Part shown: positions 4,748 to 37,221 of the stretch, one piece after another
Layout of the letters: every line of letters starts with the position of its first letter
Numbering within the stretch: the first letter of the stretch is position 1
Source: a virus
Lineage: Duplodnaviria > Heunggongvirae > Uroviricota > Caudoviricetes
Virus record (IMG/VR): IMGVR_UViG_2778261538_000002
Direction: 5' to 3' (one strand)
DNA length: 38,253 nucleotides
Made by a program: the position numbers and the translations under genes
Notes under the pieces: model-generated
Told to the model about the DNA's origin: nothing
The model's database searches: none
What the model saw: the letters and a program-made list of their open reading frames with translations, nothing else

Positions 4748-7700
4748 GCGTCGTATCCCCCCTGATCGCTGTAGTTACTCCTGGCTTTTGCCTTCAGCCT
4801 GCGTTCACGTTCATCAAGCTGGCGTGCCACCTCCCGCGCAATATCCTGCGCACTTTGTCCTGGCTGCGTCTGGATGATGATCTGCGTCGGTGCCTCAATC
4901 CGGTGAACGGGCGGCACAGTAGCTGCGCGACTCACCATCGCTTTGCCGCCTTTCGCGGGAAGCGCCAAAGGATGCAACGGTGGAAGCTCTGCTGGCGCGG
5001 CAGCAACGCCCATCATTCCGGCAACAACGGCAGCCAGTGCAGCTGTATTTCTCCGGCTGGTCACATTTGCCGGGCCGTTAACAATTTCCGGCCCGTTTTC
5101 ACCGACGATGCCAAACTGCCCGCGCGGGATATACCCGCCGCTGTCATACATCCCCGCAAAGCCATATCCCCATGACGGAAAACCACCCGATGGCATCATC
5201 ACTTTGCCGTCTGCATTCACCGTCGCAGGTTGCTGACGCGTCACGCTTTCCGGTAGTTTTGCCTTTGCGGCCTCTTTACTGACAATGCCGAGTTTCTCCA
5301 GCAACCAGGAAACGCCGGATTTCAGGGAGTCCAGCGGATGCATGACCATATTCAGCCCTTCCGCCAGTGCCTCCCCGAATCGTCGCCCCATTGCCGCTGC
5401 GCTCTGCAGTTCGGCAGAGGTCGACTTAACGGGCGTCAGCAGATCAGTAAACCAGCCCCACAGAGCCTGCACTTTGTCACCAATCCACTGAAACACGGGC
5501 TTAAGTGGTTCGAATGCGGCACTGATGGGACCTACCGCCGCTTTGAGTCCTTCCACCACGCCACCGAGAAATGCGGTGATGGGTTGCCAGTATTTCCAGA
5601 CAACCAGCGCCACGCCCGCCAGTGCAGTAACCACAAGACCTATCGGACTGAGCAGAGCACCTAACAGACCAGATATGGCATACAGGGCAACGCGCAGCAT
5701 CACCAGCGGACCGGATGCCAGCACTCGCAACACTGCACCTGCGGCAGTCAGTCCACCGCGCAGTGCCGCCAGTGGATTCATAAACATCAAGGCAACAGCA
5801 CGTAAACCGGATAAACCGGACCGCAACAGTGCAACAGGCGCAGCTGCCACAGTTTTCAGGGCATTTCCCGTCAGTGATGCCGTGCGGCGCAAAGACAACA
5901 GCGGCGCAGTAAGCAAACCCGCACTGCTCCCCGATGAAGCAAACCCGCGTCGCAGCACTGCCAGTGGCGCGCCTGCCAGCCTGGATAACGCGCTGCTGGT
6001 TCGTGTTACTGCATCCGTCACCGAAGGTAACGTCTTGATACCCAGCACAGAGAATCCCAGACGGATGACTGCCAGCGGCCCCAGCACTGCAGCCAACACC
6101 ACAGCCAGGGTGCCGAGGCCCACGGTAACCGCAGCCACAACAGCGGCTACTTTCATCAGTGTGCCCGTCAGTTCCGGGTTAGCTTCCACCCAGCGACGCG
6201 ACGCCCCCGTGACGCTTTTCACCATGTACAAAATATCCATCAGCGGCTGGCGCAGCGTTTCGCCCAGGCTGCTGAAGGTGTTCTGCGCTCCGGTTTTGAC
6301 CAGCAACCACTGCGCAGAAAGTGAATCCTTGTTAATGTCGGATTCTTTCTGCATGGAGCCGAGCGCATCATTGCCCGCTGTCAGTTTTAGCTGGCGCTGC
6401 AGTTCCGGCAGGTTGTTTGCCAGTTTCGCCGCGTCATCGCCAAACTCTTTACCAAACAACATGGTCATGGCAGACAGGCGCTTATCCTGCGGAAGCGCAT
6501 TCACCTTCTCCAGTACGCGCTGGATGGTTCCCATCGCATCCTTCGTCATCTGCTTTTCAATCACTTCAGGATTGAGTTTCAGCAGATTCATTCCTTCAAA
6601 GAAACTCTTGCTCTGCATGGTGGCAATGGACAATTCACGCACCATCGCGTTTGCTGCACTGGCTGCAACCTCCGGCGCAGCACCCAGTGTCAGGAAGGTT
6701 GAACCCAGCGCCGCCGCTTTACGATAATCCAGACGGTCAGCCACACCGCCCAGGCGTTGCATGACATCAATGATGTCTGCCCCTTTCGACATGGCGTTAT
6801 CATCCAGATAGTTCAGCGCGTCACCGAGCTGTTCAATATTGCGGGTAGGGATTTTGTAGAGCTGGGCGATTTTCCCCAGACTTTCTGACAGTTCATCCGC
6901 TGGCAGCTCAAAGGCTGTTGCCGCCTTTGCTGCCGTGCTGGCGAAGGCCAGCAGGTCACGTTTCTGGTCTTCCCAGCTGTCGTCAGGGTTTGCGACGTTC
7001 ATGCGCGCACCACCTTCAACCAGTGCAGCGAAATCCACCGCACCGTTTTCCATCGGCAACTGTTCGCTGGCAGCCTTGATGGCATCCTGCATTTCATAAA
7101 AACGTGCAGTGCGGTTGCCATTATCGTCACGCAGACCATTGACCTGCTTTGCCACACCTTTCATGGCATCTTCCATGCTGGTATAGCTTTTTACTGCCGC
7201 CATCACTGGTGCGCCCATTGCCAGCCCTGCAGCCGTGGTGGTGGCTCCTGCACCTGCAATACGATCACGCACCTCCAGTGAACGAGCATAACTGGCACGC
7301 GCCGCATTCATCCTGCGCTGAGCTTCCCCCAGTCGCTTCAGCCGCGCCTCCTGTTTCGACAATTCCTGGTTATAACGTGATGTTTCACGTGCTAAACGGG
7401 CAGTTGCTCCCGCATCATCTTTCGCAGAAATTCCCGCCCGGTACAGTTCTGCACGCACAAGCGCCGTTTGCTTCTGCAAATATTTTTGTTGTTCTTCCAG
7501 GCGTTGGACTGCCAGCGTTTGCCGACCTAAAGCCACAAGGTGCCGTTGTGATGGTTGTTCCATCGCTTCCAGCTCAGAACTAAGCAAATTTGCCTTCTGT
7601 CTGGCATAGTTCAGCCTGTCGCCTAACTTTTTGTTATCGGCCTGCAGCTTGCGAAATTTTTCCAGGCTGTTACCCGCCTGATTGAGTTGCTTTAATGCGT

Positions 7701-21445: not shown

Positions 21446-23212
21446 ATGAACACCACACTGACACCCGCAGATCTCGATCCCCGTCGGCAGGCCATGCTGC
21501 TGTACTTTCAGGGATACCGCGTAGCCCGCATTGCTGAAATGCTGGGCGAAAAAGTTGCAACCGTTCACAGCTGGAAGAAACGCGACAAGTGGGGTGACTA
21601 TGGGCCGCTGGATCAGATGCAGCTCACCACCGCCGCACGTTACTGCCAGCTCATTATGAAGGAGCACAAAGAAGGGAAAGATTTCAAAGAAATTGACCTG
21701 CTGGCGCGGCAGTCGGAGCGCCACGCGCGGATCGGCAAGTTTAACAATGGCGGCAACGAAGCCGACTTAAACCCTAACGTCGCCAACCGCAACAAAGGCC
21801 CGCGTCGTCAGCCGGAAAAGAACGTTTTCACCGATGAACAGATTGAAAAGCTGGAAGAAATCTTCCATTCCTCCATGTTCAACTACCAGCGCCACTGGTG
21901 GGAAGCCGGAAAAACCAACCGCATCCGCAACCTGTTGAAGTCACGCCAGATCGGCGCGACCTTCTATTTTGCCCGTGAAGCCCTGATTGACGCTCTGCTG
22001 ACTGGACGTAACCAGATTTTCCTTTCCGCAAGCAAGGCACAGGCCCACGTCTTTAAGCAGTACATCATCGACTTCGCCAAAGAAGTGGAGGTGGAGCTGA
22101 AAGGTGATCCGATGGTGCTTCCCAACGGGGCCACGCTTTACTTCCTCGGCACCAATGCCCGCACGGCCCAGAGTTATCACGGCAACCTGTATCTGGATGA
22201 ATATTTCTGGATACCGAAATTCCAGGAGCTGCGCAAAGTGGCTTCCGGTATGGCTATTCACAAGAAATGGCGACAGACCTATTTTTCCACGCCATCCAGT
22301 CTGACACACAGTGCTTATCCGTTCTGGTCCGGTGCGCTGTTCAACCGTGGGCGCAACAAAGCCGATAAGGTGGACATCGACCTGTCCCACAGCAATCTGG
22401 CCCCCGGCCTGCTGTGCGCAGACGGGCAATACCGCCAGATAGTCACCGTGGAAGATGCGGTGCGCGGCGGCTGTAACCTGTTCGACCTTGACCAGTTGCG
22501 CATGGAGTACAGCCCGGACGAATACCAGAACCTGCTGATGTGCGAGTTCGTGGACGATCTCGCGTCCGTGTTCCCGCTCAGCGAGCTGCAGGCGTGCATG
22601 GTGGACAGCTGGGAAGTCTGGACCGACTTTCATGCACTGGCCCTGCGCCCGTTTGGCTGGCGCGAAGTATGGATCGGCTATGACCCGGCAAAAGGCACGC
22701 AGAACGGCGACAGCGCCGGATGCGTGGTGGTGGCACCGCCAGCCGTACCGGGCGGCAAATTCCGCATTCTTGAGCGGCACCAGTGGCGCGGGATGGACTT
22801 CCGCGCCCAGGCTGACGCCATCAAAAAACTGACACAGCAGTACAACGTGACCTATATCGGCATTGACTCGACCGGCGTCGGTCACGGGGTTTATGAGAAC
22901 GTGAAAGCGTTCTTTCCTGCCGTCCGGGAGTTTGTCTACAACCCCAATGTTAAAAACGCCCTGGTACTCAAGGCCTACGACATTATCAGCCACCGCCGTC
23001 TGGAGTTTGACGCCGGACACACCGACATTGCGCAGTCATTTATGGCAATCCGTCGTGCCACCACCGCCAGTGGCAACCGCCCGACCTATGAAGCCAGCCG
23101 CAGCGAAGAAGCCAGTCACGCCGATCTGGCCTGGGCAACGATGCACGCACTGTTTAATGAACCGCTGCAGGGCGAGTCCGCCAATACCAGCAATATTGTG
23201 GAGATTTTTTGA
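21446..23212 (+). CDS. P: terminase large (ATPase) subunit
   Basis: 588-aa ORF; P2 gpP-like. Confidence 0.9.
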   Translation: MNTTLTPADLDPRRQAMLLYFQGYRVARIAEMLGEKVATVHSWKKRDKWGDYGPLDQMQLTTAARYCQLIMKEHKEGKDFKEIDLLARQSERHARIGKFNNGGNEADLNPNVANRNKGPRRQPEKNVFTDEQIEKLEEIFHSSMFNYQRHWWEAGKTNRIRNLLKSRQIGATFYFAREALIDALLTGRNQIFLSASKAQAHVFKQYIIDFAKEVEVELKGDPMVLPNGATLYFLGTNARTAQSYHGNLYLDEYFWIPKFQELRKVASGMAIHKKWRQTYFSTPSSLTHSAYPFWSGALFNRGRNKADKVDIDLSHSNLAPGLLCADGQYRQIVTVEDAVRGGCNLFDLDQLRMEYSPDEYQNLLMCEFVDDLASVFPLSELQACMVDSWEVWTDFHALALRPFGWREVWIGYDPAKGTQNGDSAGCVVVAPPAVPGGKFRILERHQWRGMDFRAQADAIKKLTQQYNVTYIGIDSTGVGHGVYENVKAFFPAVREFVYNPNVKNALVLKAYDIISHRRLEFDAGHTDIAQSFMAIRRATTASGNRPTYEASRSEEASHADLAWATMHALFNEPLQGESANTSNIVEIF

Positions 23213-24237
23213 TGGGAAAGAGTAAGAAAAACCGCGCTGCGGCGACGAACCAGATCCAGCATAAAAACCAAACTTCAGCCGAAGCATTCAGCTTCGGTGA
23301 TCCCGTTCCTGTTCTGGACCGCCGCGAATTACTGGACTATGTGGAATGCGTACAGATGGACCGCTGGTATGAGCCACCAGTGAGTTTCGACGGGCTGGCG
23401 CGAACCTTTCGCGCCGCCGTGCACCACAGCTCACCGATTGCCGTAAAGTGCAACATTCTGACCAGCACCTACATCCCTCATCCGCTGCTCAGCCAGCAGG
23501 CTTTTTCACGTTTTGTGCAGGACTATCTGGTATTTGGTAACGCCTACCTGGAGAAACGCACGAACCGCTTCGGTGAAGTGATCGCCCTTGAACCTGCCCT
23601 GGCGAAATACACCCGACGCGGGTTAGACCTAGATACCTACTGGTTTGTGCAATACGGTATGACAACCCAGCCGTATCAGTTCACGAAAGGCAGCATTTTT
23701 CATCTGATGGAACCGGACATCAACCAAGAGATCTACGGCCTGCCCGGTTATCTTTCTGCCATTCCGTCAGCCTTGCTCAACGAGTCCGCCACGCTGTTCC
23801 GCCGCAAGTATTACATTAACGGCAGTCATGCTGGCTTCATCATGTACATGACCGACGCCGCGCAGAACCAGGAAGATGTGAACAACCTCCGTAATGCGAT
23901 GAAAAGCGCCAAAGGTCCGGGCAACTTCCGCAACCTGTTTATGTACTCGCCGAACGGCAAAAAGGACGGACTTCAGATTATCCCGTTGTCAGAAGTCGCG
24001 GCGAAGGATGAATTTCTGAATATCAAGAACGTGAGCCGTGATGACATGATGGCTGCGCACCGCGTGCCGCCTCAGATGATGGGGATTATGCCGAATAATG
24101 TCGGGGGATTTGGGGATGTGGAGAAGGCCGCAAATGTATTTGTGCGTAATGAGTTAATTCCGCTTCAAAGAATTATACAAGGATTTAACGGATTTATTGG
24201 TGACGACATCATAAACTTCGAAAAATATAAATTATAG
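23209..24237 (+). CDS. Q: portal protein
   Basis: 342-aa ORF, ATGA-coupled to P; P2 gpQ-like. Confidence 0.9.
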   Translation: MMGKSKKNRAAATNQIQHKNQTSAEAFSFGDPVPVLDRRELLDYVECVQMDRWYEPPVSFDGLARTFRAAVHHSSPIAVKCNILTSTYIPHPLLSQQAFSRFVQDYLVFGNAYLEKRTNRFGEVIALEPALAKYTRRGLDLDTYWFVQYGMTTQPYQFTKGSIFHLMEPDINQEIYGLPGYLSAIPSALLNESATLFRRKYYINGSHAGFIMYMTDAAQNQEDVNNLRNAMKSAKGPGNFRNLFMYSPNGKKDGLQIIPLSEVAAKDEFLNIKNVSRDDMMAAHRVPPQMMGIMPNNVGGFGDVEKAANVFVRNELIPLQRIIQGFNGFIGDDIINFEKYKL

Positions 24238-24266: not shown

Positions 24267-25346
24267 CTAACATTGTTTACATAAATCAGAAAAACTACCA
24301 CCGAAATAATACAGTGCAGATTTATCATTTAGTTCTTTAAAAACTTCACACGCACGCTGGTGTATCTCAATAGCACTAGATTTATTTCGTCCAATAATAA
24401 CAGTCTCTTTTTCAGTACTATCGCCATCCAGAAAAGTCTTCAAAAGAAAATTAATAATAAAGTCTTCCTTTGGGAAAGAATAACCTATAAAGATCAACAG
24501 ATCTGCTTGTCTCAACTGGGTAGAGGATTTCACAAAAGCTGTCTTAAAGTATTTATCCCCATAGTCTTGTTCATTTGAAGGCAAGATAATATTTGGAACA
24601 ACTTTTGCGTTCAATAATGAATCATAATCTATTTTAAAACCATCCCTTGCAGCAACAACCTCAAATCCTCCATTAAGCTTATACAAACCTATACCTTTAG
24701 GCTGAGGACACACTAATATATTATTATGATGCACAGGAAAACCCCGATTAACTGAACGTTCAGGGAATGCATGATGTAGCACTTTATCAATAACTATATC
24801 GTAGTTTGTTGTGACTACATCCAGTGCTGAAGCTTCCTGTAAACTCTTAAAGAAAGAAATAATATTCCTTTTATTCTGCCCAAATTTTGCAGTTTGACTT
24901 AGCTTTAAATCATTTGCCGGTATTTTTTTTGCAAACTTATTTTTTACATATAGTTTTACTTGTGCCTCAAACAACTCAAGCGTATGCCTATCAAGATACG
25001 ACGGCAATAAACTTGGATATCGCTTATAAACATCCAATGCATATTTAAAACTCTTGAAAACATTAGCTTTGTCATCTAAACCTGCATTAGCATCCGCCCA
25101 TTTAAATTTAAGACTGTCGAACAAAGAAAAAAAACCATACTCATCAATATTTTCTAATGCTTCGTCTTCAGAGATGGAAAAGACTTCATTACTCAATGGG
25201 TATTTGTCATCCCAGGCTTTAGAAAATCCTGCTCCGAGAAAAACACATACTCTTCGCTCTCTTATTTTTGATTTCAATGTGGCGAAGGATGTAATTTCTA
25301 AATTATTAGGTGTCAAAATATCACCATCATAAGCAAAGCTAGTCAT
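24267..25346 (-). CDS. SIR2-like domain protein (candidate NADase effector)
   Basis: 359 aa; RVCVFLGAGFS Rossmann motif near the N-terminus, TTNYD motif, His cluster (VLHH, PVHH) and IFIGYSFP motif, which I recognise as the SIR2_2 (PF13289-type) pattern; AT-rich; starts 14 nt after the ATPase stop. Confidence 0.7.
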   Translation of the reverse strand: MTSFAYDGDILTPNNLEITSFATLKSKIRERRVCVFLGAGFSKAWDDKYPLSNEVFSISEDEALENIDEYGFFSLFDSLKFKWADANAGLDDKANVFKSFKYALDVYKRYPSLLPSYLDRHTLELFEAQVKLYVKNKFAKKIPANDLKLSQTAKFGQNKRNIISFFKSLQEASALDVVTTNYDIVIDKVLHHAFPERSVNRGFPVHHNNILVCPQPKGIGLYKLNGGFEVVAARDGFKIDYDSLLNAKVVPNIILPSNEQDYGDKYFKTAFVKSSTQLRQADLLIFIGYSFPKEDFIINFLLKTFLDGDSTEKETVIIGRNKSSAIEIHQRACEVFKELNDKSALYYFGGSFSDLCKQC

Positions 25347-25359
25347 GTTTTTCTCACGC

Positions 25360-26589
25360 TTAGTTTTTTATATCAAGAAAAGCTGGAACTAATCCAAATT
25401 CGCCACGTAAATATTTGGCAGACACTTTAGCATCTTTCCTTACAGAAAATACCGTAGCATTAGTTATTATCGACGCTTTAGATGAATCCTTGACTATAAT
25501 ATTAAGCTCATCTCTTCTAAACACATCATCTAATAAAGGAATATTATGTGTAGACATAATAAACTGCACACCATTTTTACGGCAGGTTTTATCAAATATT
25601 TTTTTGATTAGTGCACTTGCCAAAGAATAGTGAATAGATGAATCTATTTCATCCACATAAAGTGTAAAATCATATTCACTAGCCCAAATCAATATTGCTA
25701 AAAATGTTAAAACATTTAGTGTGCCTTGGGAAAAAAATTCATCCCTACGGTCAGGGCCTATTCTAGTAAAATCACCATCATCATTTTTTATGAGATAAAC
25801 AAATTTATACTCATTATCTTCGCCAAATCTTACAAATTCAACTTTATCTATATGCAGCGGCGACTGAATAACCATTTCATTATAGGTATTTAAAATTCTT
25901 TGACCACTCTCATTTAATTTTTCATTTCCTTCCTCACCTGATAACTGGCGCTTAAGTTGTCCTTCAACAAATTTAAGACTTGGATTTTTGAATTTTTCAG
26001 AGTAATAAGGCAATTGTTTTAATGCCCAGCGTTGGGTTTCAACAAGAGCATCAATTTCTAAAGATTTTGCAAAAGTTACAACAGCTCCACTTTCTCTTAA
26101 GACAGGATTAATCAACGACTCGTATTTTTTTAAGTCGGGCTTTTTGAAAACCAACCCATTTTCATTGCGAATAAAAATACATTGTTCCCTTGCACTTTTT
26201 CTTATCGGTCTAATGTATAAATACTCATCTACAATAACTTCATTTAAAACTGACACACCATAACGGACGAAGTTTTTTTGCTCTTCATCAATCAGTATCG
26301 CTTCATAGGAAGTAGGTTTGTTACGACATTCCTTATTTAGAAGGAAAGGCATATGCAATTTGTGTAATGTGTCACTATGAATTGAATTTGCAAATTCAGT
26401 AATAGCATTTATTAATTGTGTTTTACCAACACCATTTCCGCCTATTAATGCGGCAAATCTGTTTACTCTTAAACCATTCGCTAATGTCACGATATGTTCA
26501 GGATGCTCATCCCCAATTGAGGAAGCAAAACTAAGAACCTGTCTTTCGCGAAAGCTCTTGTAATTTTCTAAACTGAATGCAACTAGCAT
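25360..26589 (-). CDS. ABC/AAA_15-21-type ATPase (candidate defense sensor)
   Basis: 409 aa; Walker A GGNGVGKT, Walker B LYVDEID, H-loop-like FIMSTHN; GAGGA RBS; AT-rich; no TOPRIM or coiled-coil evident. Confidence 0.75.
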   Translation of the reverse strand: MLVAFSLENYKSFRERQVLSFASSIGDEHPEHIVTLANGLRVNRFAALIGGNGVGKTQLINAITEFANSIHSDTLHKLHMPFLLNKECRNKPTSYEAILIDEEQKNFVRYGVSVLNEVIVDEYLYIRPIRKSAREQCIFIRNENGLVFKKPDLKKYESLINPVLRESGAVVTFAKSLEIDALVETQRWALKQLPYYSEKFKNPSLKFVEGQLKRQLSGEEGNEKLNESGQRILNTYNEMVIQSPLHIDKVEFVRFGEDNEYKFVYLIKNDDGDFTRIGPDRRDEFFSQGTLNVLTFLAILIWASEYDFTLYVDEIDSSIHYSLASALIKKIFDKTCRKNGVQFIMSTHNIPLLDDVFRRDELNIIVKDSSKASIITNATVFSVRKDAKVSAKYLRGEFGLVPAFLDIKN

Positions 26590-26704
26590 CTGAAGTCCTC
26601 ATTTTTGCGTAAAAAACGCATTTTTGACTATTTCGGTAATGTAATCCAGTGCTAACGCAAAAGCAACTTAACATTTTATGTTATATTATTAATTATGTAT
26701 CCGC

Positions 26705-26735
26705 GCGCGCTCGTATCCCCGCCACGCCTGCCCGC
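26705..26735. other. putative cos site (cohesive end)
   Basis: - strand reads GGCGTGGCGGGGATACGAG; the first 13 nt match the P2/186 cohesive-end sequence as I recall it (GGCG[A/T]GGCGGGGAAAGCA). Confidence 0.5.
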
Positions 26736-27037
26736 TTTATGCAGTGGTTTTCATGCACCTGCATGACATGAGTAAAAGCCCGCCAGTTCTAGCAGGTCTC
26801 TGCAAAAACGATCCTCAATCGATCATGCGATTTCATGCAGCATAGTCATGCACAGCCGAGGGAAGCGTAAATCCGTATCTGAATGACCGCTGAAAAGCGA
26901 ATCATACGGGTTTACAAAGATGAAAGTCCGCTGTGAACGAGAAACGGACTATGATACTAACAAGAGAGCATCACTGTTAATATTTGAACAATTAATGCTC
27001 AGCTATTTATCTATTTTACAATCAGAAAGGACTTGTA

Positions 27038-27424
27038 ATGGTTACGGTTGATGAATTAAAGATGAAATATCCGGACGCGAATGCCTGGCAAGTGGGCGAC
27101 AGCCCTGAACTGGCTAACGAGCTTGCAGCACTTATCAAAAAAGGGATTAAAACGGCCTCCTGCGGCTCTTATGCCTCTTACCAGAAGGAAGAGTTTGCCC
27201 CAAGGATTGGGAGCTATAACATCATCCTTAACGGCCAGGATGTACCGGTATGCGTGACCCGGCTAGTGTCGATGCGACTGGTGCGTTTTTGTGATGTTAC
27301 TGCCGAGTTCGCTCGCAAGGAAGGTGAAGGCGATTTGAGTCTTGAATATTGGCAGAGAGAGCATCAACGATTTTTTACATGTGAAGGTTACTTTTCTGAC
27401 GATATGGAGCTGATTATGGAATAG
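27038..27424 (+). CDS. ASCH-domain protein
   Basis: 128 aa; ASCH/PUA-like pattern (LIKKGIKTASCG ... FARKEGEGDLSLEYWQREHQRFF); AAAGGA RBS. Confidence 0.7.
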   Translation: MVTVDELKMKYPDANAWQVGDSPELANELAALIKKGIKTASCGSYASYQKEEFAPRIGSYNIILNGQDVPVCVTRLVSMRLVRFCDVTAEFARKEGEGDLSLEYWQREHQRFFTCEGYFSDDMELIME

Positions 27425-27638
27425 TTTGAAGTTGTTGATGTTTTGTAATCCAACAACGTTTATGCATGTCAGATTAGAATAACTGAGTACCGTTTTATCA
27501 CGTGAAATTTGTATTAATGCCCGCCTCTGGCACAAAGCGAACGAGCACTTATCAAAATGCCCACCCACCTTACGCCTCGTTTCACTCGTTGCCCAAACTA
27601 GCCCCCATCAGAATGAATCCTCCTGGGGGCAACGTTTC

Positions 27639-27872
27639 TTAATGCAGCCAGCTGTCGTCTTCCCACACCTTCTGCATAATTTTCATCACTTGTTTTCTTT
27701 CTTCATCCAGTTGCAGTCCGGTCAGTTCCACACCGTTAGAGCTACCTTTACGGATACGAATTACCGTTTTGGGATACAGGGGGCGCAGATTGCGGTAAAG
27801 CTCGGATTCAAGGGCGTCCAGGGTAGACTGGCTAATCTTCTGCTCTTTATCGATCATTATTTCAATGCGCAT
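27639..27872 (-). CDS. DinI-family protein (C-terminal part of a 186 Tum-like SOS module)
   Basis: 77 aa from Met25 of ORF 27639-27944 (MRIEIMIDKEQ ... WEDDSWLH), clearly DinI-like. Confidence 0.75.
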   Translation of the reverse strand: MRIEIMIDKEQKISQSTLDALESELYRNLRPLYPKTVIRIRKGSSNGVELTGLQLDEERKQVMKIMQKVWEDDSWLH

Positions 27873-27882
27873 AAAAGTCACC

Positions 27883-28071
27883 TCAACTGATGACATCCAT
27901 TGAGCGGTTGTATTCGTGGGTTCTGATTTTTGCCATGAGTTCATCTGTCAGTTCAGAAACCCACTGCAGGGCCAGCCCCTTCTCTTCATCACTACACTCA
28001 CTAGCCGCTACAAGCTTAAGAAAAAAATCAATGCGCTGGAGCTTCAAAGACTCCAAAAAATAGTCCTGCAT
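27883..28071 (-). CDS. small protein upstream of the DinI-like gene (possible Tum N-terminal/antirepressor part)
   Basis: 62 aa from Met35 of ORF 27883-28173; AGGAGG RBS; overlaps the DinI-like ORF out of frame. Confidence 0.55.
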   Translation of the reverse strand: MQDYFLESLKLQRIDFFLKLVAASECSDEEKGLALQWVSELTDELMAKIRTHEYNRSMDVIS

Positions 28072-28099: not shown

Positions 28100-28130
28100 C
28101 TGTACACATAACCACTATTTATATTTACAG
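28100..28130. promoter_or_regulatory. putative LexA (SOS) operator overlapping the promoter of the tum-like operon
   Basis: CTATTTATATTTACAG (28115-28130) is one mismatch from CTGT-N8-ACAG; adjacent CTGTACACATAACCAC is a weaker site; TTTACA -35-like element on the - strand. Confidence 0.45.
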
Positions 28131-28224: not shown

Positions 28225-30639
28225 TTAATACAGGTTCCGCCATTTATCATCCTCCTGCAGACGCTGGTTCCGATAGAAGATACGCAGGCCTGCTTCTGAC
28301 GGAATACTGCCGCCGCGAAGGAGTAAATCGACCTCTTTCTCGCTGCCATCAAATCCTCTGGACTTCAGCTCATAGACGAGCTGCAGTCGTTGATGGTCTG
28401 TAATTCGCTGTTTGTAGTCTTTACGCCGTATCGGTTTAACCAGGCGTAACCTTGCAGCCAGTTCCCGGCGCTCTTTTTTGCTCATACTGTGCAGGTAATC
28501 GTGCAACTCCTTGTCATCCATGCGGGTAATGTCCGTTCTGGTGTCCCCATCAGCTGATTTATCTTTCTCCTGTTGGTTCAAATTTTCAGCAAGGGGACAG
28601 TTATTGCCACGAGTCCAAGGGGCGCAAGCGCCCTGGTCGGCTGCCGCCTCCTGAACGTCAACGGCCTTACGAACCATTTTCCACTTCACGGCATGAGTGC
28701 AGATCTTGCCCTCTGCAATGGGTGACCAGATGCCATAAATACGAATGCCGTGATCGCCATAGGCGGTCGGCTCTTCGTTAATTTCATAAGCGGTTCTGAT
28801 GAGGTGATATTTGCGGGGAACCAGTACGCCGCCCTGCTTCATGATGTAGGTGGCAAAACAACCAGCATCAGCAGCAGCCAGGATGGCATCAAGGCGCGGG
28901 TTATCCAGTACCGGCGCACCTGCTTTTTTGTCGCCCTGTTGCCTTGCCGCCTGACCAGCCAGCAATCGCAGTTCACGGTAAGCCTGACGCCCCGGAATGC
29001 CAAAGAAGCGGAATTGCTGAACACGATGCAGAGACGCCCAGGCATTAACGTATTCAGCGTTATCACGCAGGGATTTACCCGTTTCCTTACTGATCTCGCC
29101 AGCCAGACCACGCCCGTCAATGTTCTTACTGATGTATTTCGCGATGTAGCTTGTTGGCGTACCTTTGCGCGGGTTTATCAGCTCAGACTTAAAGCGTGGT
29201 CCCGTGTTATTACCCAGCTCCTCGCGGTCTTCACGAATGGCAAACTTACGCAACAAAGCAGTAATGGCGCGGCGATCTTTTTTGCGCATAAAACACAACA
29301 GGTGCCAGTGAACTGTACCGTCATGATGCGGCTCAGCCACCCGCACGCCATACCAGCGCAATCCGGCTTTGTGCATCGCCTTACGAAATGCAGCAAACAT
29401 GCCGACCAGATAATCACTGCTTTGTCTTACCGTCGCATTTGTCCAGGTCGGGTTGGGCCTGCCGTTATTTAGCGTGGAATGGAAACGTGACGGACAGGTG
29501 ATGGTGTAGAAAACGGCGCAGTCACCGCGCATTTCCGCGATAAGCTCCAGACCTTTAACACAGGCCATCATCTCATTGCGGCGATGCGCAGGGTTGCTGC
29601 TGCTGGCGTTTACCACATCCTCCATGTCCAGCGTGTCGCCGTCTTCGTTCACCAGTTCATGAGAACGGAAAAACTCCAGCGACTTACGGCGCTGCTCACG
29701 TTTATGCATCACGGCTTCATAGCTGACATAGGGAGATGCTTTTTTGCTGACCAGGCAAACAGCACGCAACTGCTCTTCCCGCCATTCGCAACGCATCTTC
29801 CATAATTTCCGGTACCACCAGTCGGCGCACAACATACGCGCCAGCGAACCCGGAATGAGTTCATAGGGCACGGGTTTACGGCGGTTTCTTTTCCGGCGGA
29901 GTTGCTCAAACGCAGGCGGTATGACATCCAGTCGCAGGGTTTCTGCTGCCACCTTTTCCCATGTCTTGCGGATTTCTTCTGGCTTAACATCATCGGTGGC
30001 GTACAAATCACCACAAGCGGCATCAAGACACATGCTCATATGCGCAGCGACAAGAGTAGACAGGCGTTTCACCTGATCCTGACTCATTTCAGGCAAGTTC
30101 AGCAGGCCGTCCAGCCCTTCATGGCTTGCCATAAAGCGAAAAGAAGTGGATAGCTGACTCTCGCGTACATGCTCCAGTCGTTCCAGACATGGCTTAATCG
30201 TCTCACGCAAATAGCGGGAATAAGCCTTTGGCCTGCCCAGGCTGCTGAAGTATTCAATACGTTGCATCAGCGGCTTGCTGATATGGGAAGGCTGGGCGTT
30301 AACGTCCGCCAGTATGACCATGTCCGGATTAAAACGCTGCTGCTCATGCGCCAGCTTTGCCCGGCTAATGAGCTTATCCTGCTCCATTTCGCGTTGGACA
30401 GGATCACGGGATTCATTAAAGAAATAACGCTCCCAGACCTGATCACTCAGTGCCTCGAGGCGCAGTTGTTCCTGCTCGTTATCGGCAGCGTACAGAGTGA
30501 TCAGGTTTGAAAGCGCAGAAACCGGCGCAACTTCCGCCGGGTCCAGATAAGGGTTAATAGCCTTTTTCGGGCTGTTCCATGAGAATGCTGCGGCGGCCTC
30601 GTTAAAGCCGCTGCAGTTGTTCATATCAGCATGGCTCAT
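28225..30639 (-). CDS. A: replication initiation protein A (rolling-circle nickase)
   Basis: about 804 aa from the ATG at 30639 (ORF track begins at an upstream TTG); HUH-type [10 protein letters not shown] motif and tyrosine pair YIAKYISK; ATGA-coupled to dam. Confidence 0.88.
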
Positions 30640-31493
30640 GCACGCACTCCGTACACGACGGAACAATCCACGCCACGCGAAGGATCAAATCCTACCCAGC
30701 AGCGCGGCCCGGAAACAGCGATGATTTCTGTTGCAGATTTACTCTCACCAGCTGCCACGCCGATGCTGCGTTTTGCCTTGATGTAGTGGTGAGTAAAATT
30801 GCGATACAGCGAACGGATCAGGGATGTGTCACTGTTAGAAACAATGACCGGATGTCCTTCTGATGACCGATGTTCAAGAACGGATGCCAAGTGATACTGG
30901 TCATCTTCAGTGAAGCCGTCAGTGTGATAGCCGGAAAACGTACCGTCATAAGGCGGATCGCAATACACCACATCCCCCGCCTTCAACATCGCCAGCGTTT
31001 CATCAAAGCTTGCGCAGATAAACGTTGCCCGCTGGGCTTTCTCTGCAAATGCGCGAATTTCTTTTTCAGGGAAATACGGATTTTTATAATTACCGTACGG
31101 AATGTTGAAATGCCCGCTCTTGTTATAGCGACATAACCCACGGTAACCATGACGATTGAGATACAGGAAATATACCGCTTTCATGAAATCAGTAATTTCA
31201 GTGGAGTAATTAAACTCCTGCCTTATGTTGTAATAAGCCACCTCCCTGTTTGCTTCCTCAAATAAAGCTCTGGCACGAGATATAAACGCCTCGCAATCAG
31301 CAGCAACCTTTTTATAGAGGTTGATTAAATCAGGATTAATATCCGCAACAAGATAGCTGGGGTAATCCGTCTCCATCATCACAGCACAGGAACCCGCGAA
31401 AGGTTCAACCAGTCGCGGGCCTGCAGGAAGATGTTTTTTCAGTTCGGACATAATGGCGGTTTTATTTCCCGCCCATTTCAGGATGGTGCTCAT
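30636..31493 (-). CDS. dam: DNA adenine methyltransferase (Dam-like)
   Basis: ORF 30636-31553 trimmed to Met21 ([11 protein letters not shown]); motif [10 protein letters not shown] and motif IV DPPY. Confidence 0.85.
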
Positions 31494-33632: not shown

Positions 33633-34583
33633 ATGTCAACTCAAAAATTCACATTTCGCCATATCAAAGAGGATGCGAAAGCCATTGTTATGCAGAATCG
33701 TGGGGGACAGAAAGTCATTGAGCGAATACTCAAAGCTTATGGCTTCAAGTCACGCCAAGCGTTCTGTAACCATCTTGGTATTTCACAAAGTACGATGGCC
33801 AATAGATATGCTCGCGATACATTTCCTGCTGATTGGGTTGTTATATGCTCAATGGAAACAGGAGCATCTTTGGAATGGCTGGCGTTTGGTTCTGATGCGG
33901 CAGAAGAAATACTCTCAACTGCTCCAAATGGATACAACGAAGACGACCAGCGAGATGACGTTGAAAGTGACAATCATATACCTTCCTTTAATTTTCATAA
34001 TGATCATCAAGTCGATTTCAATCAGGGAGGAAAAGCGGCAATAGAACGGATAGTTAAGGCTTATGGCTTTAAAACTCGTCAAGCACTGGCAGATCATCTT
34101 GGTATATCAAAAAGTACATTAGCTACACGCTATATGCGTGACTCATTCCCTGCTGATTGGATAATACAGTGTGCCCTTGAAACTGGATTCTCATTGAAAT
34201 GGCTTGTTGATGGGCAAGGACTTAATAAAAGTTCACAAAATGAAAACATTGTGTGCATAAACAAGTACGTGCTTGCCGATGGTGCACTCGAAATGAAGGG
34301 TAACTACATTTTTGATAAGTCCTTTGTACCTAAGTCGATTAAAGATCCAATGTTAATATTTGATGGCAGCAGGATATACTTAGCTGAGGGGAACTTTGAC
34401 GAAATTAGCGATGGATTGTGGTTTGTTGAAATTGAAGGAAAAATCAGTGTTCGCGAGGTAATAAGAATACCGGTAGGTAAAGTAAGAGTAACGAGCTCAA
34501 ACTCAAATATTACTTTTGACTGTGCAATTAATGAACTCAAACCGGTTGCAAAATGCCAGTTCAACCTAATGACTATAATATAA
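33633..34583 (+). CDS. cI: CI-type immunity repressor with duplicated N-terminal HTH domain
   Basis: 316 aa; two tandem copies of a 186-CI-like HTH module (ERILKAYGFKSRQAF...HLGISQSTMANRY..FPADW and ERIVKAYGFKTRQAL...HLGISKSTLATRY..FPADW) plus a CI-like C-terminal domain. Confidence 0.8.
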   Translation: MSTQKFTFRHIKEDAKAIVMQNRGGQKVIERILKAYGFKSRQAFCNHLGISQSTMANRYARDTFPADWVVICSMETGASLEWLAFGSDAAEEILSTAPNGYNEDDQRDDVESDNHIPSFNFHNDHQVDFNQGGKAAIERIVKAYGFKTRQALADHLGISKSTLATRYMRDSFPADWIIQCALETGFSLKWLVDGQGLNKSSQNENIVCINKYVLADGALEMKGNYIFDKSFVPKSIKDPMLIFDGSRIYLAEGNFDEISDGLWFVEIEGKISVREVIRIPVGKVRVTSSNSNITFDCAINELKPVAKCQFNLMTII

Positions 34584-34614: not shown

Positions 34615-35733
34615 ATGTCTAGAAGTTTTGCTATTTGGGGATGCCGAAACTACGCTAAAGGCCCAGGAGAGGATTATAATGAGACTCAAGCAGATTTTAT
34701 AAACGAACTACACATCAACTTTTGGAATATCACATCCCAAAAATGCTATCATCTAGATTTTGGCATATCATTTTCTCGCCCCCAAGATAATGAAATTTCA
34801 GAACAGGGTGCAATCTGTTTATTTTTACCGTTTGTAAAAGAAAAAGATGACTTCATTGATTTAAGTACGAACCTAGATAGCAGCAAAGAACTGATCACCG
34901 CGGTTTTTAATGAATACGTCATAAATAAAGACTCAATAAACGAGAAACACTTATTATTAAATTTAACACGAAAAGGTAAACTAATAGTTAATACAAAACT
35001 TGATTTTCAAGGGGGGGCATTCGACAAAAGAATCACATTGAGAAAGAGGAATGATGGGACATATGTATTTTTCCATCTGCAGGATTGTTTGTCTAATTGC
35101 AATAATTGCAATTACTACATCAGATTCAGAATTAACCTAAATGAATCTGATGTTGAAGCAATTGTTAAAACATTCTATCCAAAAGATTTATTCTTAAAAA
35201 GCAATATTGAACGTTCTGATATTATAGATTTCAGAATTAACGAACAAAGAAATTTGCCAAACGAAGTCGCAACCACACTGGCCAGCGCCTCTTGCACTCC
35301 AAGCAAATATCATTTTTTCGTTATACGAGATATGGTTGACGAAGCATCGGCATCAGGTTCAAGCTATCAAGGTTGTCGTATTCTTGAATCAGAGACATGG
35401 AAAAAATACTTTTCAAATAATGTCAATTTTGGTAAGAACGATCCTATGATTTACCACTGGAAAGCTAAAAAGGATGATGGCGCACGGCTAGGTGACTTCT
35501 CTGTAGTAGTGAAGTTCAAGACTACTAAATCAAAAATTAGTAAAATATTTACATATATGTTCTATGCTGCAGCCATAGCATACATAATGAAATTTATTCC
35601 AACAGATGGTGTGCATAAAGACATTTATCTAATTTGCACCATTGCATTTATTGTAGCTTACATTGCCGCTCACTTTATTAAACCACAAAAATTATCCAAC
35701 TTTATTGCACTGGTGAAAAAATGGAAAAATTAA
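34615..35733 (+). CDS. hypothetical protein with C-terminal transmembrane helices (cargo gene 1)
   Basis: 372 aa; large soluble N-terminal region, two hydrophobic helices near the C-terminus; AT-rich; 32 nt after the cI stop. Confidence 0.7.
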   Translation: MSRSFAIWGCRNYAKGPGEDYNETQADFINELHINFWNITSQKCYHLDFGISFSRPQDNEISEQGAICLFLPFVKEKDDFIDLSTNLDSSKELITAVFNEYVINKDSINEKHLLLNLTRKGKLIVNTKLDFQGGAFDKRITLRKRNDGTYVFFHLQDCLSNCNNCNYYIRFRINLNESDVEAIVKTFYPKDLFLKSNIERSDIIDFRINEQRNLPNEVATTLASASCTPSKYHFFVIRDMVDEASASGSSYQGCRILESETWKKYFSNNVNFGKNDPMIYHWKAKKDDGARLGDFSVVVKFKTTKSKISKIFTYMFYAAAIAYIMKFIPTDGVHKDIYLICTIAFIVAYIAAHFIKPQKLSNFIALVKKWKN

Positions 35734-36800
35734 AACACATTCAGTTTAATGAAGTTAATTTTAACGATGTTTTTTTTGACTCCTTAAAAAAAGACTATCA
35801 ACATGGATTTATCGATTGGTTCAATAAAAAATGTAATTCTATCGAAGAAAAAGCTTATGTCTTATATAATGATGACAACACAATTGATGGTTTTTTATAC
35901 TTGAAAATTGAGCGTGGTATTATTGACGACGTAATACCACCTTTGACTCGTGCTAAACATCTAAAAATAGGCACATTTAAATTCAACCCGAAGGGGACTC
36001 TACGAGGACAAAGATTCCTCAAAAAGATTTTTGATCATGCACTAAAAGAAAAAGTAGATGATATCTATGTGACTGTTTTTGAAAAACATGATTATTTAAT
36101 TAGACTATTCAAAATTTATGGTTTTATTCATGTTGCTACAAAACAAACTGCTAATGGTAGTGAACAAGTCTTAGTAAGAGAGATGAATAAAAATCATCTT
36201 ACAGGGGATATTTTGTCTGATTATCCGTATATAAATAATAGCAACGATGAAAACAAATATCTGTTATCCATATATCCTGAATTCCATACAAAACTGTTTC
36301 CTGATTCGATACTCACCACAGAGTCCCCTGATATAATCACGGATGTATCTCATGCGAATAGCATTAGAAAAATATATATATGCAGAATGCATGACGTAAA
36401 AAAAATAAAAAGACATGACATTTTAGTTATTTACAGAACAAGTGACAAAGAAAACAGAGCGTATTATCGCTCTGTCGCAACGTCATTATGTGTAGTTGAA
36501 GATATTAGACATATTGATTCTTTTTATAGTGAAAAAGAATTCATACAGTATTGTACACGATACAGTGTATTCTCTGAAAATGAATTAAAAAAATCCTATC
36601 AAACAAAAAGATACCCTTACATTATTAGTTTTACATATAATCTAGCTTTACCTAAAAGAATAAACCGTGCTAAACTAATCAAAGAAATTGGTTTAAATCC
36701 TAAAAACCGTTGGGGTGTTGTTAAATTAACCGATGAGCAATTTGACGATATAATTAAACTTGGTGCTGTAGATGAAAGTATTATTGTCAATAAAACCTGA
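35721..36800 (+). CDS. hypothetical protein, N-terminal GNAT-like fold fused to an unknown C-terminal domain (cargo gene 2)
   Basis: 359 aa; N-terminal 150 aa have GNAT-like topology (…KIGTFKF…RGQRFLKKIF…YLIRLFKIYGF…); overlaps neighbouring genes at both ends. Confidence 0.65.
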   Translation: MEKLKHIQFNEVNFNDVFFDSLKKDYQHGFIDWFNKKCNSIEEKAYVLYNDDNTIDGFLYLKIERGIIDDVIPPLTRAKHLKIGTFKFNPKGTLRGQRFLKKIFDHALKEKVDDIYVTVFEKHDYLIRLFKIYGFIHVATKQTANGSEQVLVREMNKNHLTGDILSDYPYINNSNDENKYLLSIYPEFHTKLFPDSILTTESPDIITDVSHANSIRKIYICRMHDVKKIKRHDILVIYRTSDKENRAYYRSVATSLCVVEDIRHIDSFYSEKEFIQYCTRYSVFSENELKKSYQTKRYPYIISFTYNLALPKRINRAKLIKEIGLNPKNRWGVVKLTDEQFDDIIKLGAVDESIIVNKT

Positions 36801-37143
36801 ATTTGTTGAAAAAATCCTTAATGGGACGAAGAAGTTTGAATTCAGGAAAGGTATTTTTAAAAAACCGGATGTAAAATCTGTGGTTATTTATTCAACAATG
36901 CCTGTCGGTAAAGTTGTTGCTGAATTTGACATTGCAGATGTTATAGAAGATAAGCCGAGTATTGTATGGGAAAAAACAAGCCAATACGCAGGTATCAGTA
37001 AACAATTTTTTGACTCTTATTTTCATAGCAAAGAAAAAGCCTTTGCTATAGAAATTGGTAATCTAAAAATCTATGACCAACCACTTCATCTAAGTTCATT
37101 AGGTGATAACATAACGGCCCCGCAATCATATCGGTACTTATGA
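36772..37143 (+). CDS. ASCH-domain protein (cargo gene 3)
   Basis: 123 aa; MKVLLSIKPEFVEKILNGTKKFEFRK is a typical ASCH N-terminus. Confidence 0.7.
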   Translation: MKVLLSIKPEFVEKILNGTKKFEFRKGIFKKPDVKSVVIYSTMPVGKVVAEFDIADVIEDKPSIVWEKTSQYAGISKQFFDSYFHSKEKAFAIEIGNLKIYDQPLHLSSLGDNITAPQSYRYL

Positions 37144-37221
37144 TGTATGTAACCTTAAGCATCATACATTGACACTGGTTATATATACAGTAAAAATGCT
37201 CTCCACTGGAGGGCATTTTTT

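Follow-up and report, generated by a model that had tools for sequence, protein, structure and literature searches.

The open reading frame at 27038–27424 of the window (the whole analyzed stretch, 38,253 nucleotides of a 186-like prophage), here called ASCH-1, is a genuine gene that stands alone, was acquired horizontally, and falls in the DUF984/EF3133 (PDB ID: 1T62) branch of the ASCH superfamily; its location is an already known hotspot. It lies on the plus strand and encodes 128 aa, a shortened version of an ASCH protein of the DUF984/EF3133 type that has 136 aa when intact. Here, we propose that a stand-alone ASCH gene was captured, that its intact form is a putative hydrolase, and that the truncated copy in the window is probably inactive; we assign a probability of about 0.6 to this account as a whole.

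ASCH-1 matched the Pfam ASCH profile (PF04266) with an E value of 1.5e-19 and a score of 71.1 bits, and the second ASCH protein of the prophage (ASCH-2, 123 aa, plus strand) matched it with 2e-6 and 28.9 bits (cut-off, 21.2 bits). The first-pass annotation had called a 128-aa ASCH protein at 27038–27424 and another ASCH protein at 36772–37143; both calls are confirmed, and the ASCH fold of each is supported by this HMM comparison. ASCH-1 was aligned to positions 4–95 of the 103 profile positions, and an intact relative was aligned to positions 4–103 with 85 bits. The ASCH domain of ASCH-1 is incomplete, the TAG codon being reached before profile positions 96–103. A relative with 90% identity to ASCH-1 matched two solved structures, 1T62 (E = 2e-27) and 3S9X (E = 5e-20). 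ASCH-1 belongs to the DUF984/EF3133 branch (2402 clusters when grouped at 50% identity, with the structures of two members solved) by its full-length similarity to 1T62 and 3S9X and by the conserved residues Gly36, Lys38, Thr/Ser41, Glu95-Gly-Glu97-Gly-Asp99, Trp105, His109, and Phe130, the last of which the window allele lacks, as the stop codon precedes it. The dN/dS values (0.05–0.28) indicate a constrained gene.

The premature TAG is codon 129 (27422–27424, plus strand), which is GAG in the relatives, as observed in the alignment with E. coli 2547. A recent G-to-T change at 27422 created this stop codon and removed the last eight residues, EFEVVDVL, including the near-invariant Phe130. The orphaned 3′ end of the ancestral ORF, comprising the codons for FEVVDVL and the original TAA stop, is located at 27425–27448 on the plus strand. 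The nearest relative is intact and shares 99.5% nucleotide identity with the window allele (dN = 0). All 91 relatives examined have a length of at least 136 aa and an EEF-V-V C terminus, Phe130 is kept in 93 of 97 diverse family members, and positions 132–133 are mostly hydrophobic (Val, Leu, or Ile). Because this near-invariant segment is deleted, ASCH-1 of the window is probably inactive, that is, an ordinary, dead passenger gene, as judged from its sequence. The importance of the lost C terminus rests on conservation, since no usable structure model of ASCH-1 was obtained: the AlphaFold2 prediction for an intact relative gave a pLDDT of 41.6, as its alignment of 28 sequences (Neff 1.4) was too shallow. 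The 128-aa protein might instead still be functional, with the last eight residues dispensable and the allele representing a neutral or adaptive length variant, but we consider this unlikely. The residues aligned with the YqfB triad (see below) are all upstream of the stop codon. The truncated allele was counted on 26 contigs, compared with 40 for its intact twin and 472 for the WP_021537502 type; its presence on at least 26 independent E. coli contigs excludes a sequencing error, and its persistence there makes a residual function possible. However, none of the 91 relatives, nor any other member of the 90% cluster, ends at codon 128, and the truncation removes the conserved Phe130 together with the hydrophobic positions 132–133. 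Moreover, the allele differs by one substitution of very recent origin while the rest of the background is the same, a pattern typical of incipient decay.

The intact 136-aa protein most likely functions as a small hydrolase whose substrate is a modified (N-acylated) nucleoside or nucleotide or a comparable metabolite. Its putative pocket would consist of Lys38, Ser41, Glu95/Glu97/Asp99, Trp105, His109, and Phe130, and would be analogous to the Lys-Thr-Glu site of YqfB without the arginine. The conservation across the family is enzyme-like, involving Gly36, Lys38, Thr/Ser41, Glu95, Gly96, Glu97, Asp99, Trp105, and His109. Among 20 fusion proteins scanned, a partner was identified in 14, and every identified partner is an enzyme of small-molecule or nucleotide metabolism (GATase, aminotransferase, PALP, His_Phos_1, HD, NTP_transf_3, GT2, rhodanese, and cupin); no nuclease was found among the 20. 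The conserved pocket (Lys, Thr/Ser, Glu-Gly-Glu-Gly-Asp, Trp, His, and Phe) and the exclusively metabolic fusion partners render an enzymatic function testable. Some of the fusion partners may be gene-calling artefacts.

The ASCH-1 family is mainly a stand-alone chromosomal gene of other Enterobacterales and a rare, borrowed cargo in phages. It has 764 homologues, of which the best 120 listed share 79 to 91% identity across Enterobacterales genera. At 80 species-representative loci, no P2-like phage markers were found within 6 kb of the family gene (0/80), and no neighbor is conserved, the commonest being LysR (17/80). No close relative is present among 50,697 GenBank phage records, and in IMG/VR the family was seen on just 11 of 2.9 million contigs. 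GenBank "phage" records also contain a homologue with 52% identity, but it was discarded because these records are bacterial sequences with wrong labels (large contigs of Salmonella and fragments marked unverified); it is missing from complete E. coli genomes.

ASCH-1 resides in a single-gene cassette of ~0.6 kb (26915–27539, plus strand), in which the 5′ region, the ORF, and the 3′ region move together between prophage slots and which occasionally enters prophage cargo slots. Its bounds were set by the limits of homology with a copy in the Z/fun slot (90%) and a copy beside icd (92%); the cassette is likewise found in the tum–cos slot. Other family members are found in a lambdoid nin-like region and next to umuDC. 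The repeated arrival of the cassette in prophage cargo slots could reflect a benefit to phages. The ~110 nt upstream of the gene are conserved, yet they contain frame-breaking indels and are therefore non-coding. A 43-aa ORF at 26920–27051 was considered as a leader or partner gene of ASCH-1 and was rejected on the basis of these indels among the cassette copies. No convincing plus-strand promoter for ASCH-1 was found, the promoter and terminator scans being uninformative, and an Rfam search of the region gave no matches.

In this 186-like prophage of E. coli, the cassette occupies the slot that separates cos from the SOS-controlled tum/DinI operon. The cos site was located by alignment of the 186 end junction. 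The cohesive-end sequence is at 26710–26728 on the minus strand, and the reverse complement of these window positions, GGCGTGGCGGGGATACGAG, corresponds to GGCGTGGCGGGGAAAGCAT of the annotated phage 186 cos. An alignment of 53 columns that runs across the right end of 186 and 13 bases into the cohesive end reached 87%; a search with a degenerate P2/186 cos pattern (≤3 mismatches) gave zero matches. The surrounding region (26700–26853) is conserved and common to P2/186-like phages, and the cargo varies to the left of ~26700. When the genome is packaged in linear form, ASCH-1 lies at its far right end, with ~310 bp between the gene and the cos cut. The left arm past cos carries an AAA_21/AbiLi-like ATPase (25360–26589, minus strand; Pfam AAA_21, 9.4e-14; PADLOC AbiLi, 2.1e-51) and its SIR2_2 partner (24267–25346, minus strand; Pfam SIR2_2, 1.3e-8). 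The slot of ASCH-1 is occupied by orf97 in phage 186 and by nothing or a DUF8087 gene in most E. coli relatives. ASCH-1 is cargo, lying between gpA and gpQ beside cos where the gene content varies among syntenic prophages. This cos-proximal hotspot of P2-like phages was described by Rousset 2022 (PMC9122126), and the intact gene (WP_021537502) is already included in the P2 hotspot loci table of that study (PMC9122126). No phenotype was found for ASCH-1 in the literature and supplements covered by the search.

The DinI/Tum-like gene (27639–27872, minus strand; Pfam DinI, 6.6e-23), annotated by PGAP in the sister prophages, is convergent with ASCH-1. A 62-aa ORF (phrog_698; 27883–28071, minus strand) is the first gene of this SOS-type operon, and a LexA-box-like site, CTATTTATATTTACAG (28115–28130, plus strand), lies upstream of the two genes at the position of 186 p95. 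A GC-rich hairpin predicted by RNA folding between the convergent genes (27603–27632) is a candidate terminator. Being convergent with the SOS operon, ASCH-1 is outside it. LexA control of ASCH-1 was rejected, as the gene and the operon are on different strands and the 5′ region of the cassette lacks CTGT-N8-ACAG. The earlier description of the gene positions agrees with our analysis: ASCH-1 lies between the SOS (tum-like) module and cos, it is oriented opposite to the ATPase–SIR2 operon, whose two genes lie beyond cos on the minus strand, and each ASCH gene is at a cargo position, both being in variable regions of the P2/186-like prophage.

ASCH-2 (36772–37143) is subunit B (PDC-M11B, ZmASCH-like; PADLOC, 1.7e-49) of the two-gene PADLOC candidate system PDC-M11 in the cI–int operon. 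It carries the full GKER motif (Gly18-Lys20-Glu23-Arg25), and its AlphaFold model (pLDDT 92.9) superimposes on ZmASCH with TM scores of 0.88 to 0.89. PDC-M11A (35721–36800, plus strand; 359 aa; PADLOC, 6.7e-139) overlaps ASCH-2 by 29 nt and has a GNAT-like N terminus; it matched the acetyltransferase phrog_13728 with 1.8e-26 and PaiA (PDB ID: 1TIQ) with E = 0.03. A 372-aa protein (34615–35733, plus strand), for which family searches gave no match, is encoded between CI and PDC-M11A at a position that is variable in relatives, with 361-aa or 261-aa genes in those of Serratia. The PDC-M11 pair is located between cI and int on one strand in tight succession and is therefore probably cotranscribed in the lysogen. 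This region is a minor integrase–primase hotspot (PMC13586616).

The first-pass annotation had regarded the two ASCH proteins as paralogs, which was contradicted by their alignment. At the sequence level, ASCH-1 and ASCH-2 have no detectable relationship, the fold being all that they share (BLASTP, E = 1.9; hhalign of the family profiles, probability 0.3%). This lack of a relationship and their different ASCH branches indicate that the two genes were acquired independently. A duplication in the phage lineage that gave rise to two cooperating genes is highly improbable, even though both match PF04266 and the ASCH-2 model superimposes weakly (TM 0.55) on 1T62, a solved relative of ASCH-1. In addition to the sequence comparisons, the motif classes differ (G-K-S-G in ASCH-1 and G-K-E-R in ASCH-2), as do the closest structures. 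ASCH-2 accompanies PDC-M11A in the cI–int slot at the E. coli and Serratia loci examined, whereas ASCH-1 is solitary and mostly chromosomal.

A role of the pair in phage–host or phage–phage conflict had also been proposed. For ASCH-1, a defense role is unsupported; for ASCH-2, the defense link persists only through PDC-M11 and is only a candidate. In the comparison with known and candidate anti-phage systems (PADLOC-DB v2), ASCH-1 had no match, and ASCH-2 matched with its partner directly upstream. We consider it unlikely that ASCH-1 is a functional conflict gene, namely a PUA-like protein that reads or erases nucleic acid modifications for defense against other phages or for counter-defense. 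Several observations are consistent with such a role. More than one-third of the cloned systems from the gpA–gpQ hotspot were anti-phage (PMC9122126), and plasmid expression of orf97, which occupies the same slot in phage 186, stops 186 infection. The cassette recurs at five or more distinct cargo positions in prophages or islands, P2 Orf91 and PDC-M11B exemplify the repeated carriage of ASCH-superfamily genes by P2-like phages, and BapA, an ASCH-like hydrolase, defends against T-even phages. An Mrr_cat restriction endonuclease adjoins ASCH-1 in four complete E. coli genomes. However, 19 of 23 genomes with the Mrr_cat cassette have it without ASCH, and elsewhere ASCH is present and Mrr_cat is missing; the two cassettes are independent of each other, and Mrr_cat was rejected as a partner of ASCH-1 in these four sister prophages. 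With respect to modification-dependent restriction, no nuclease is located beside ASCH-1 in the window, and Mrr_cat is absent from the window and from the nearest relative. ASCH-1 has no match in PADLOC, PHROG, or NCBIfam. The rarity of the family in the phage and IMG/VR records, the absence of P2-like markers and of a conserved (defense) neighbor at the 80 species loci, the metabolic fusion partners, and the nonsense truncation of the window copy also argue against a conflict function.

ASCH recruits in P2/186-like phages include Orf91/DUF3850 by gene A, the DUF984-type cassette by cos or Z/fun, and PDC-M11B with its GNAT-like partner in the cI–int operon, and three ASCH-superfamily lineages are now known from P2-like cargo regions. 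It is conceivable, though we regard it as unlikely, that these phages recruit ASCH branches to erase or read acyl or other modifications of the bases in tRNA or DNA, tuning the host or excluding rival phages. PDC-M11 would then be an acetyl writer–eraser pair, and the intact ASCH-1 protein would act on its own as an eraser through a candidate G-K-S-(not R) active site. ASCH-1 of the window offers little to gain, being the truncated form of a rare cargo gene whose hotspot has been described before, and the PDC-M11 pair (GNAT-like protein and ASCH) is the better experimental target in this prophage.

Among known systems, E. coli YqfB (N4-acetylcytidine amidohydrolase; PDB ID: 1TE7 and 9KYF) has the ASCH fold in common with ASCH-1. 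YqfB consists of 103 aa, whereas intact ASCH-1 (136 aa) has an extra N-terminal helix with a W-x-G-D motif. Lys21, Thr24, Glu74, and Arg26 of YqfB are catalytic, the T24S mutant being active and R26A inactive (PMC6972931), and the authors modeled YqfB on the 1T62 template (PMC6972931). Gly19, Lys21, and Thr24 of YqfB are aligned with Gly36, Lys38, and Ser41 of ASCH-1, the alignment of the Lys and Ser residues running through 1T62. Glu74 is paired with Glu95 only in a non-significant hhalign alignment; a direct hhalign comparison between the ASCH-1 family and YqfB was not significant, and ASCH-1 had no YqfB match in NCBIfam. Of the octapeptide G-x-K-x-x-[T/S/E]-x-R, ASCH-1 has Gly36, Lys38, and Ser41, but the Arg is replaced by Gly43; the residue equivalent to Arg26 is Ser or Gly, never Arg, in 97 family members. 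As R26A abolishes the activity of YqfB, a YqfB-type reaction is not assured for ASCH-1, and its octapeptide class was explicitly excluded from a 2026 survey of ASCH tRNA deacetylases.

EF3133 (PDB ID: 1T62, formerly Pfam DUF984) and the Lactobacillus crispatus ASCH domain (PDB ID: 3S9X), named "YhfF" in the literature, are structural-genomics entries without an assigned function. They share G-x-K-x-A-[ST]-C, EGEGD, Trp, His, and FF with ASCH-1, and they also have a C-terminal F-x-V-V segment, which ASCH-1 of the window lacks. ZmASCH (PDB ID: 5GUQ and 5GUS) is akin to ASCH-2 by sequence (5GUS, 3.4e-9) and by model (TM 0.89), and both have the GKER motif and a C-terminal PQS motif. ZmASCH has no GNAT-like partner, whereas ASCH-2 is paired with one; ASCH-1 did not match ZmASCH. 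The phage 186 orf97 and P2 tin-old-Orf91 regions represent the same slot as that of ASCH-1, by cos and downstream of gene A and tum. In 186, orf97 runs in the same direction as tum within the SOS operon and shows an exclusion phenotype, whereas ASCH-1 is convergent and unrelated in sequence. P2 Orf91 is also ASCH-like (DUF3850, 1.1e-16; ASCH, 1.8e-10), but it belongs to another ASCH branch than ASCH-1 and is located directly after gene A.

The ORF at 27038–27424 (+; ASCH-1) encodes a 128-aa protein that matches the Pfam ASCH family (PF04266; E = 1.5e-19, 71 bits), and its ATG is preceded at 7 nt by a good ribosome-binding site (AAGGA). No match to ASCH-1 was found in profile searches of NCBIfam, PADLOC, and PHROGs. 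The first-pass annotation, which was made from the sequence alone, had recognized this protein and a second ASCH gene at 36772–37143 (+; ASCH-2); both are borne out by Pfam, the latter with a weaker match (E = 2e-6). Its placement of ASCH-1, flanked by the SOS module and by cos and divergent from the ATPase–SIR2 operon, also agrees with the gene order and the mapped cos.

The window holds a 186-like prophage of the P2 family from E. coli. Because the host rybB sRNA gene (RybB at 2700–2778; Rfam, 105 bits) directly abuts the prophage end, positions 1 to ~2800 are host chromosome. The terminase (21446–23212, +) and portal (23209–24237, +) genes are followed by a SIR2 (SIR2_2 protein) gene (24267–25346, −), an AAA_21/AbiLi-like ATPase gene (25360–26589, −), cos, ASCH-1, a DinI/Tum-like gene (27639–27872, −), a 62-aa ORF (orf62, −), and replication endonuclease A (28225–30666, −), after which the early genes come next. 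The two-gene ATPase–SIR2 operon between portal and cos (24267–26589) is AT-rich (33% GC). A LexA-box-like site (28115–28130) is located upstream of the orf62–DinI operon; ASCH-1, on the opposite strand and convergent with this operon, is therefore outside the SOS unit. The gene for a CI-like repressor (33633–34583) precedes those for a 372-aa protein without assigned family, PDC-M11A, ASCH-2, and the integrase, and a second LexA-box-like sequence, CTGGTTATATATACAG (37175–37190), is found after the stop codon of ASCH-2 and before the integrase start codon. The repressor has 316 aa with three PHROG-matched stretches, its Serratia relatives having 188–204 aa, and may have undergone an N-terminal duplication or fusion.

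The cos site was located by alignment to the phage 186 end junction (NC_001317, cos annotated at 1–19). It lies at 26710–26728, the reverse complement being GGCGTGGCGGGGATACGAG, as compared with GGCGTGGCGGGGAAAGCAT in phage 186; over 53 columns that run across the right end of 186 and into the cohesive end, of which they include the first 13 bases, the alignment to the window reaches 87%. ASCH-1 is the last right-arm gene of the linear, packaged genome, whose left arm has the ATPase–SIR2 pair at its cos-proximal end. A block at ~26700–26853 is conserved in Fels-2, SopEPhi, and P2-like phages of Yersinia and Klebsiella. Left of ~26700, the cargo varies among otherwise near-identical prophages: SIR2 and ATPase in the window, retron Ec67, HIRAN, or TIR elsewhere. 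On this side, the variable region starts at most ~10 bp from the cohesive end. On the other side, among 1273 E. coli genomes with both cos and DinI flanks, the slot is empty (~290 bp), is taken up by a ~1-kb segment that includes a DUF8087 gene or a hypothetical one, or, in rare cases, holds ASCH.

The window allele of ASCH-1 is shorter than its relatives. The E. coli 2547 copy, with 98% nucleotide identity, is annotated as a 136-aa ASCH protein (WP_021537502) and has GAG at codon 129, as opposed to TAG in the window (27422–27424). The following nucleotides (27425–27448) still hold the FEVVDVL codons and the original TAA stop. The closest relative, an IMG/VR locus (L023; 99.5% nucleotide identity, dN = 0 over codons 1–128), is intact. 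The ORF spans at least 136 aa in 80 of 80 species-representative genome loci and in all 11 IMG/VR loci that encode a relative, and the C-terminus of these 91 relatives reads ...MEL[IV]xEEFx[VLI][VI].... In an alignment of 97 diverse single-domain family members (clusters at 50% identity), F130 is kept in 93, and positions 132–133 mostly hold a hydrophobic residue (V, L, or I). For the truncated protein, the Pfam match ends at profile position 95 of 103, while that of an intact relative spans 4–103 (85 bits). In an exact-sequence look-up, 472 and 40 contigs had intact forms and 26 had the truncated one, all under E. coli or Escherichia names; other database entries of 128 aa owe their length to an alternative start call and have a complete C-terminus. 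The TAG thus appears to be a very recent single-base change that deleted the last conserved segment of the domain, and, judging from conservation, the ASCH-1 protein of the window is probably inactive. The dN/dS values are 0.05–0.28, indicating that the gene is under constraint.

As to the relationship between the two proteins, the first-pass annotation had called them paralogs, which proved unsupported: they gave no mutual alignment (BLASTP E = 1.9; family-profile comparison probability 0.3%), and their octapeptides, as defined in a 2026 preprint (10.64898/2026.02.27.708502), differ (G36-I-K38-T-A-S41-C-G43 in ASCH-1, G18-T-K20-K-F-E23-F-R25 in ASCH-2). ASCH-1 is assigned by sequence comparison to the branch of EF3133 (PDB 1T62, “Pfam DUF984”; E = 2e-27) and PDB 3S9X (E = 5e-20), whose proteins are called “uncharacterized protein YhfF” in several sources. 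ASCH-2 (123 aa) is a ZmASCH-like, GKER-type ASCH. It matches ZmASCH by sequence (PDB 5GUS, 3.4e-9), and its AlphaFold model (pLDDT 92.9) superimposes on ZmASCH with a TM score of 0.88–0.89 and on 1T62 with 0.55. Only the fold is common to the two, and by these comparisons they were acquired independently, from branches of the superfamily that are far apart.

ASCH-2 also matches PADLOC PDC-M11B (1.7e-49) and phrog_3136 (2.5e-53). It overlaps by 29 nt with PDC-M11A, which has 359 aa and is GNAT-like at its N-terminus (phrog_13728 acetyltransferase, 1.8e-26; PaiA 1TIQ, E = 0.03). This PDC-M11 module (35721–37143; upstream gene at 34615–35733) is flanked by cI and int, with the genes closely spaced on one strand; Serratia 186-like prophages have the same arrangement with a variable upstream gene. 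PDC-M11 is a PADLOC candidate system, and its two proteins could form an acetyl writer–eraser pair. In a literature search, the sole mention of PDC-M11 found was an annotation in a strain list. Regarding the conflict role that had been suggested for both proteins, a defence function is unsupported for ASCH-1, and ASCH-2 is only a candidate through PDC-M11B.

Here, we propose that intact ASCH-1 would be a small hydrolase whose substrate is a modified nucleoside, nucleotide, or metabolite, and that it would not serve restriction as a reader of DNA modification. The 97-member alignment contains a strongly conserved, pocket-like set (G36, K38, T/S41, E95-G-E97-G-D99, W105, H109, and F130). Via 1T62, K38 and S41 align with Lys21 and Thr24 of YqfB, in which T24S is active and K21A, T24A, and R26A are dead (PMC6972931); the equivalent of Arg26 is Ser or Gly throughout the ASCH-1 branch. 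Among 20 multidomain relatives, the fusion partner was identified in 14, and none was a nuclease, helicase, or GNAT; the partners were GATase/Peptidase_C26, aminotransferase, PALP, His_Phos_1, HD, MobA-like NTP transferase, GT2, rhodanese, cupin, DUF4440, SnoaL, DUF4286, DUF2007, and LPG_synthase_TM. In the preprint that defined the octapeptide, tRNA ac4C was deacetylated by 19 of 19 ASCH proteins assayed, a sampling that left out bacterial proteins substituted at the last motif position, the class to which ASCH-1 belongs.

ASCH-1 homologues (n = 764; the best 120 at 79–91% identity) occur in Enterobacter, Klebsiella-type Enterobacteriaceae, Kluyvera, Rahnella, Serratia, Dickeya, Erwinia, and others. 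P2-like markers were found within 6 kb of the relative in 0 of 80 species-representative genomes, the commonest neighbour family being a LysR regulator (17/80 loci), and the sampled contexts included ordinary chromosomal surroundings in E. ludwigii and variable islands elsewhere. The gene is present in four of 5426 complete E. coli genomes, every time in the same tum–cos slot, and no close relative was found among 50,697 GenBank phage records. A distinct Escherichia clade (at least 90% nucleotide identity) has a common ~0.6-kb cassette (window 26915–27539). It sits in the tum–cos slot in the window, L001, L020, L021, L023, and L024. In a P2-like prophage of E. fergusonii (L012), it occupies the Z/fun slot, between the genes for the sheath and for tail-fibre assembly. 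In L013, L025, and L026, it adjoins icd where a lambdoid remnant ends, and in E. ruysiae (L034), its neighbours are umuDC and an SRAP gene. Family members further removed from this clade were found in a nin-like region of lambdoid type (L032) and adjoining gpD and sheath genes (L030). From these chromosomal contexts and scattered prophage sites, the gene is in the main solitary and chromosomal, and prophages have captured it as a moron on occasion. In E. ruysiae, the cassette is divergent from the umuD–umuC pair and the SRAP gene (3409–5816 of the locus), a second SOS-related neighbourhood after tum/DinI; with two cases, this may be coincidence. The E. fergusonii prophage also has a Pycsar-like pair (cyclase and PycTM) among its tail genes (12489–14391 of L012).

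The four complete E. coli genomes in which ASCH occurs also have a 1.4-kb cassette encoding an Mrr_cat restriction endonuclease, located between cos and ASCH and flanked by a short repeated hairpin-like sequence (4575–4603 and 6001–6029 in the sister prophage L001). The window (junction at 26921–26949) and L023 lack the endonuclease and have one hybrid copy of this sequence, which suggests gain or loss of the cassette by recombination there. Mrr_cat and ASCH-1 as one system was rejected, since ASCH is missing from 19 of the 23 genomes with the cassette and occurs without it elsewhere.

The hotspot that contains ASCH-1 is a known one, and the gene itself is real. New here are the branch of each ASCH gene and the lack of a detectable sequence relationship between them, the cassette boundaries, its other landing sites, and the nonsense mutation. 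The cos-proximal gpA–gpQ hotspot of P2-like phages is well described (PMC9122126), and a 2026 survey reported further minor hotspots, integrase–primase among them (PMC13586616). The supplementary table of P2 hotspot loci by Rousset et al. already includes ASCH-1 in its intact form (WP_021537502, WP_133265732) as well as the pair AAA_21+SIR2_2 (WP_000959164), each entered as a bare string of domains with no test attached, together with 133 “DUF3850/ASCH” entries (PMC9122126). In phage P2, Orf91, directly after gene A (1317–1646 of locus L118), matches DUF3850 (1.1e-16) and ASCH (1.8e-10) in profile searches and is itself a member of the ASCH superfamily. Finding a gene of this superfamily next to gene A or next to cos of a P2-like phage is therefore not new. 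In phage 186, the slot of ASCH-1 is occupied by orf97, annotated with “expression from plasmid blocks 186 infection” (NC_001317); orf97 and tum point in the same direction within the p95 operon, which LexA controls, whereas ASCH-1 converges on the orf62–DinI operon.
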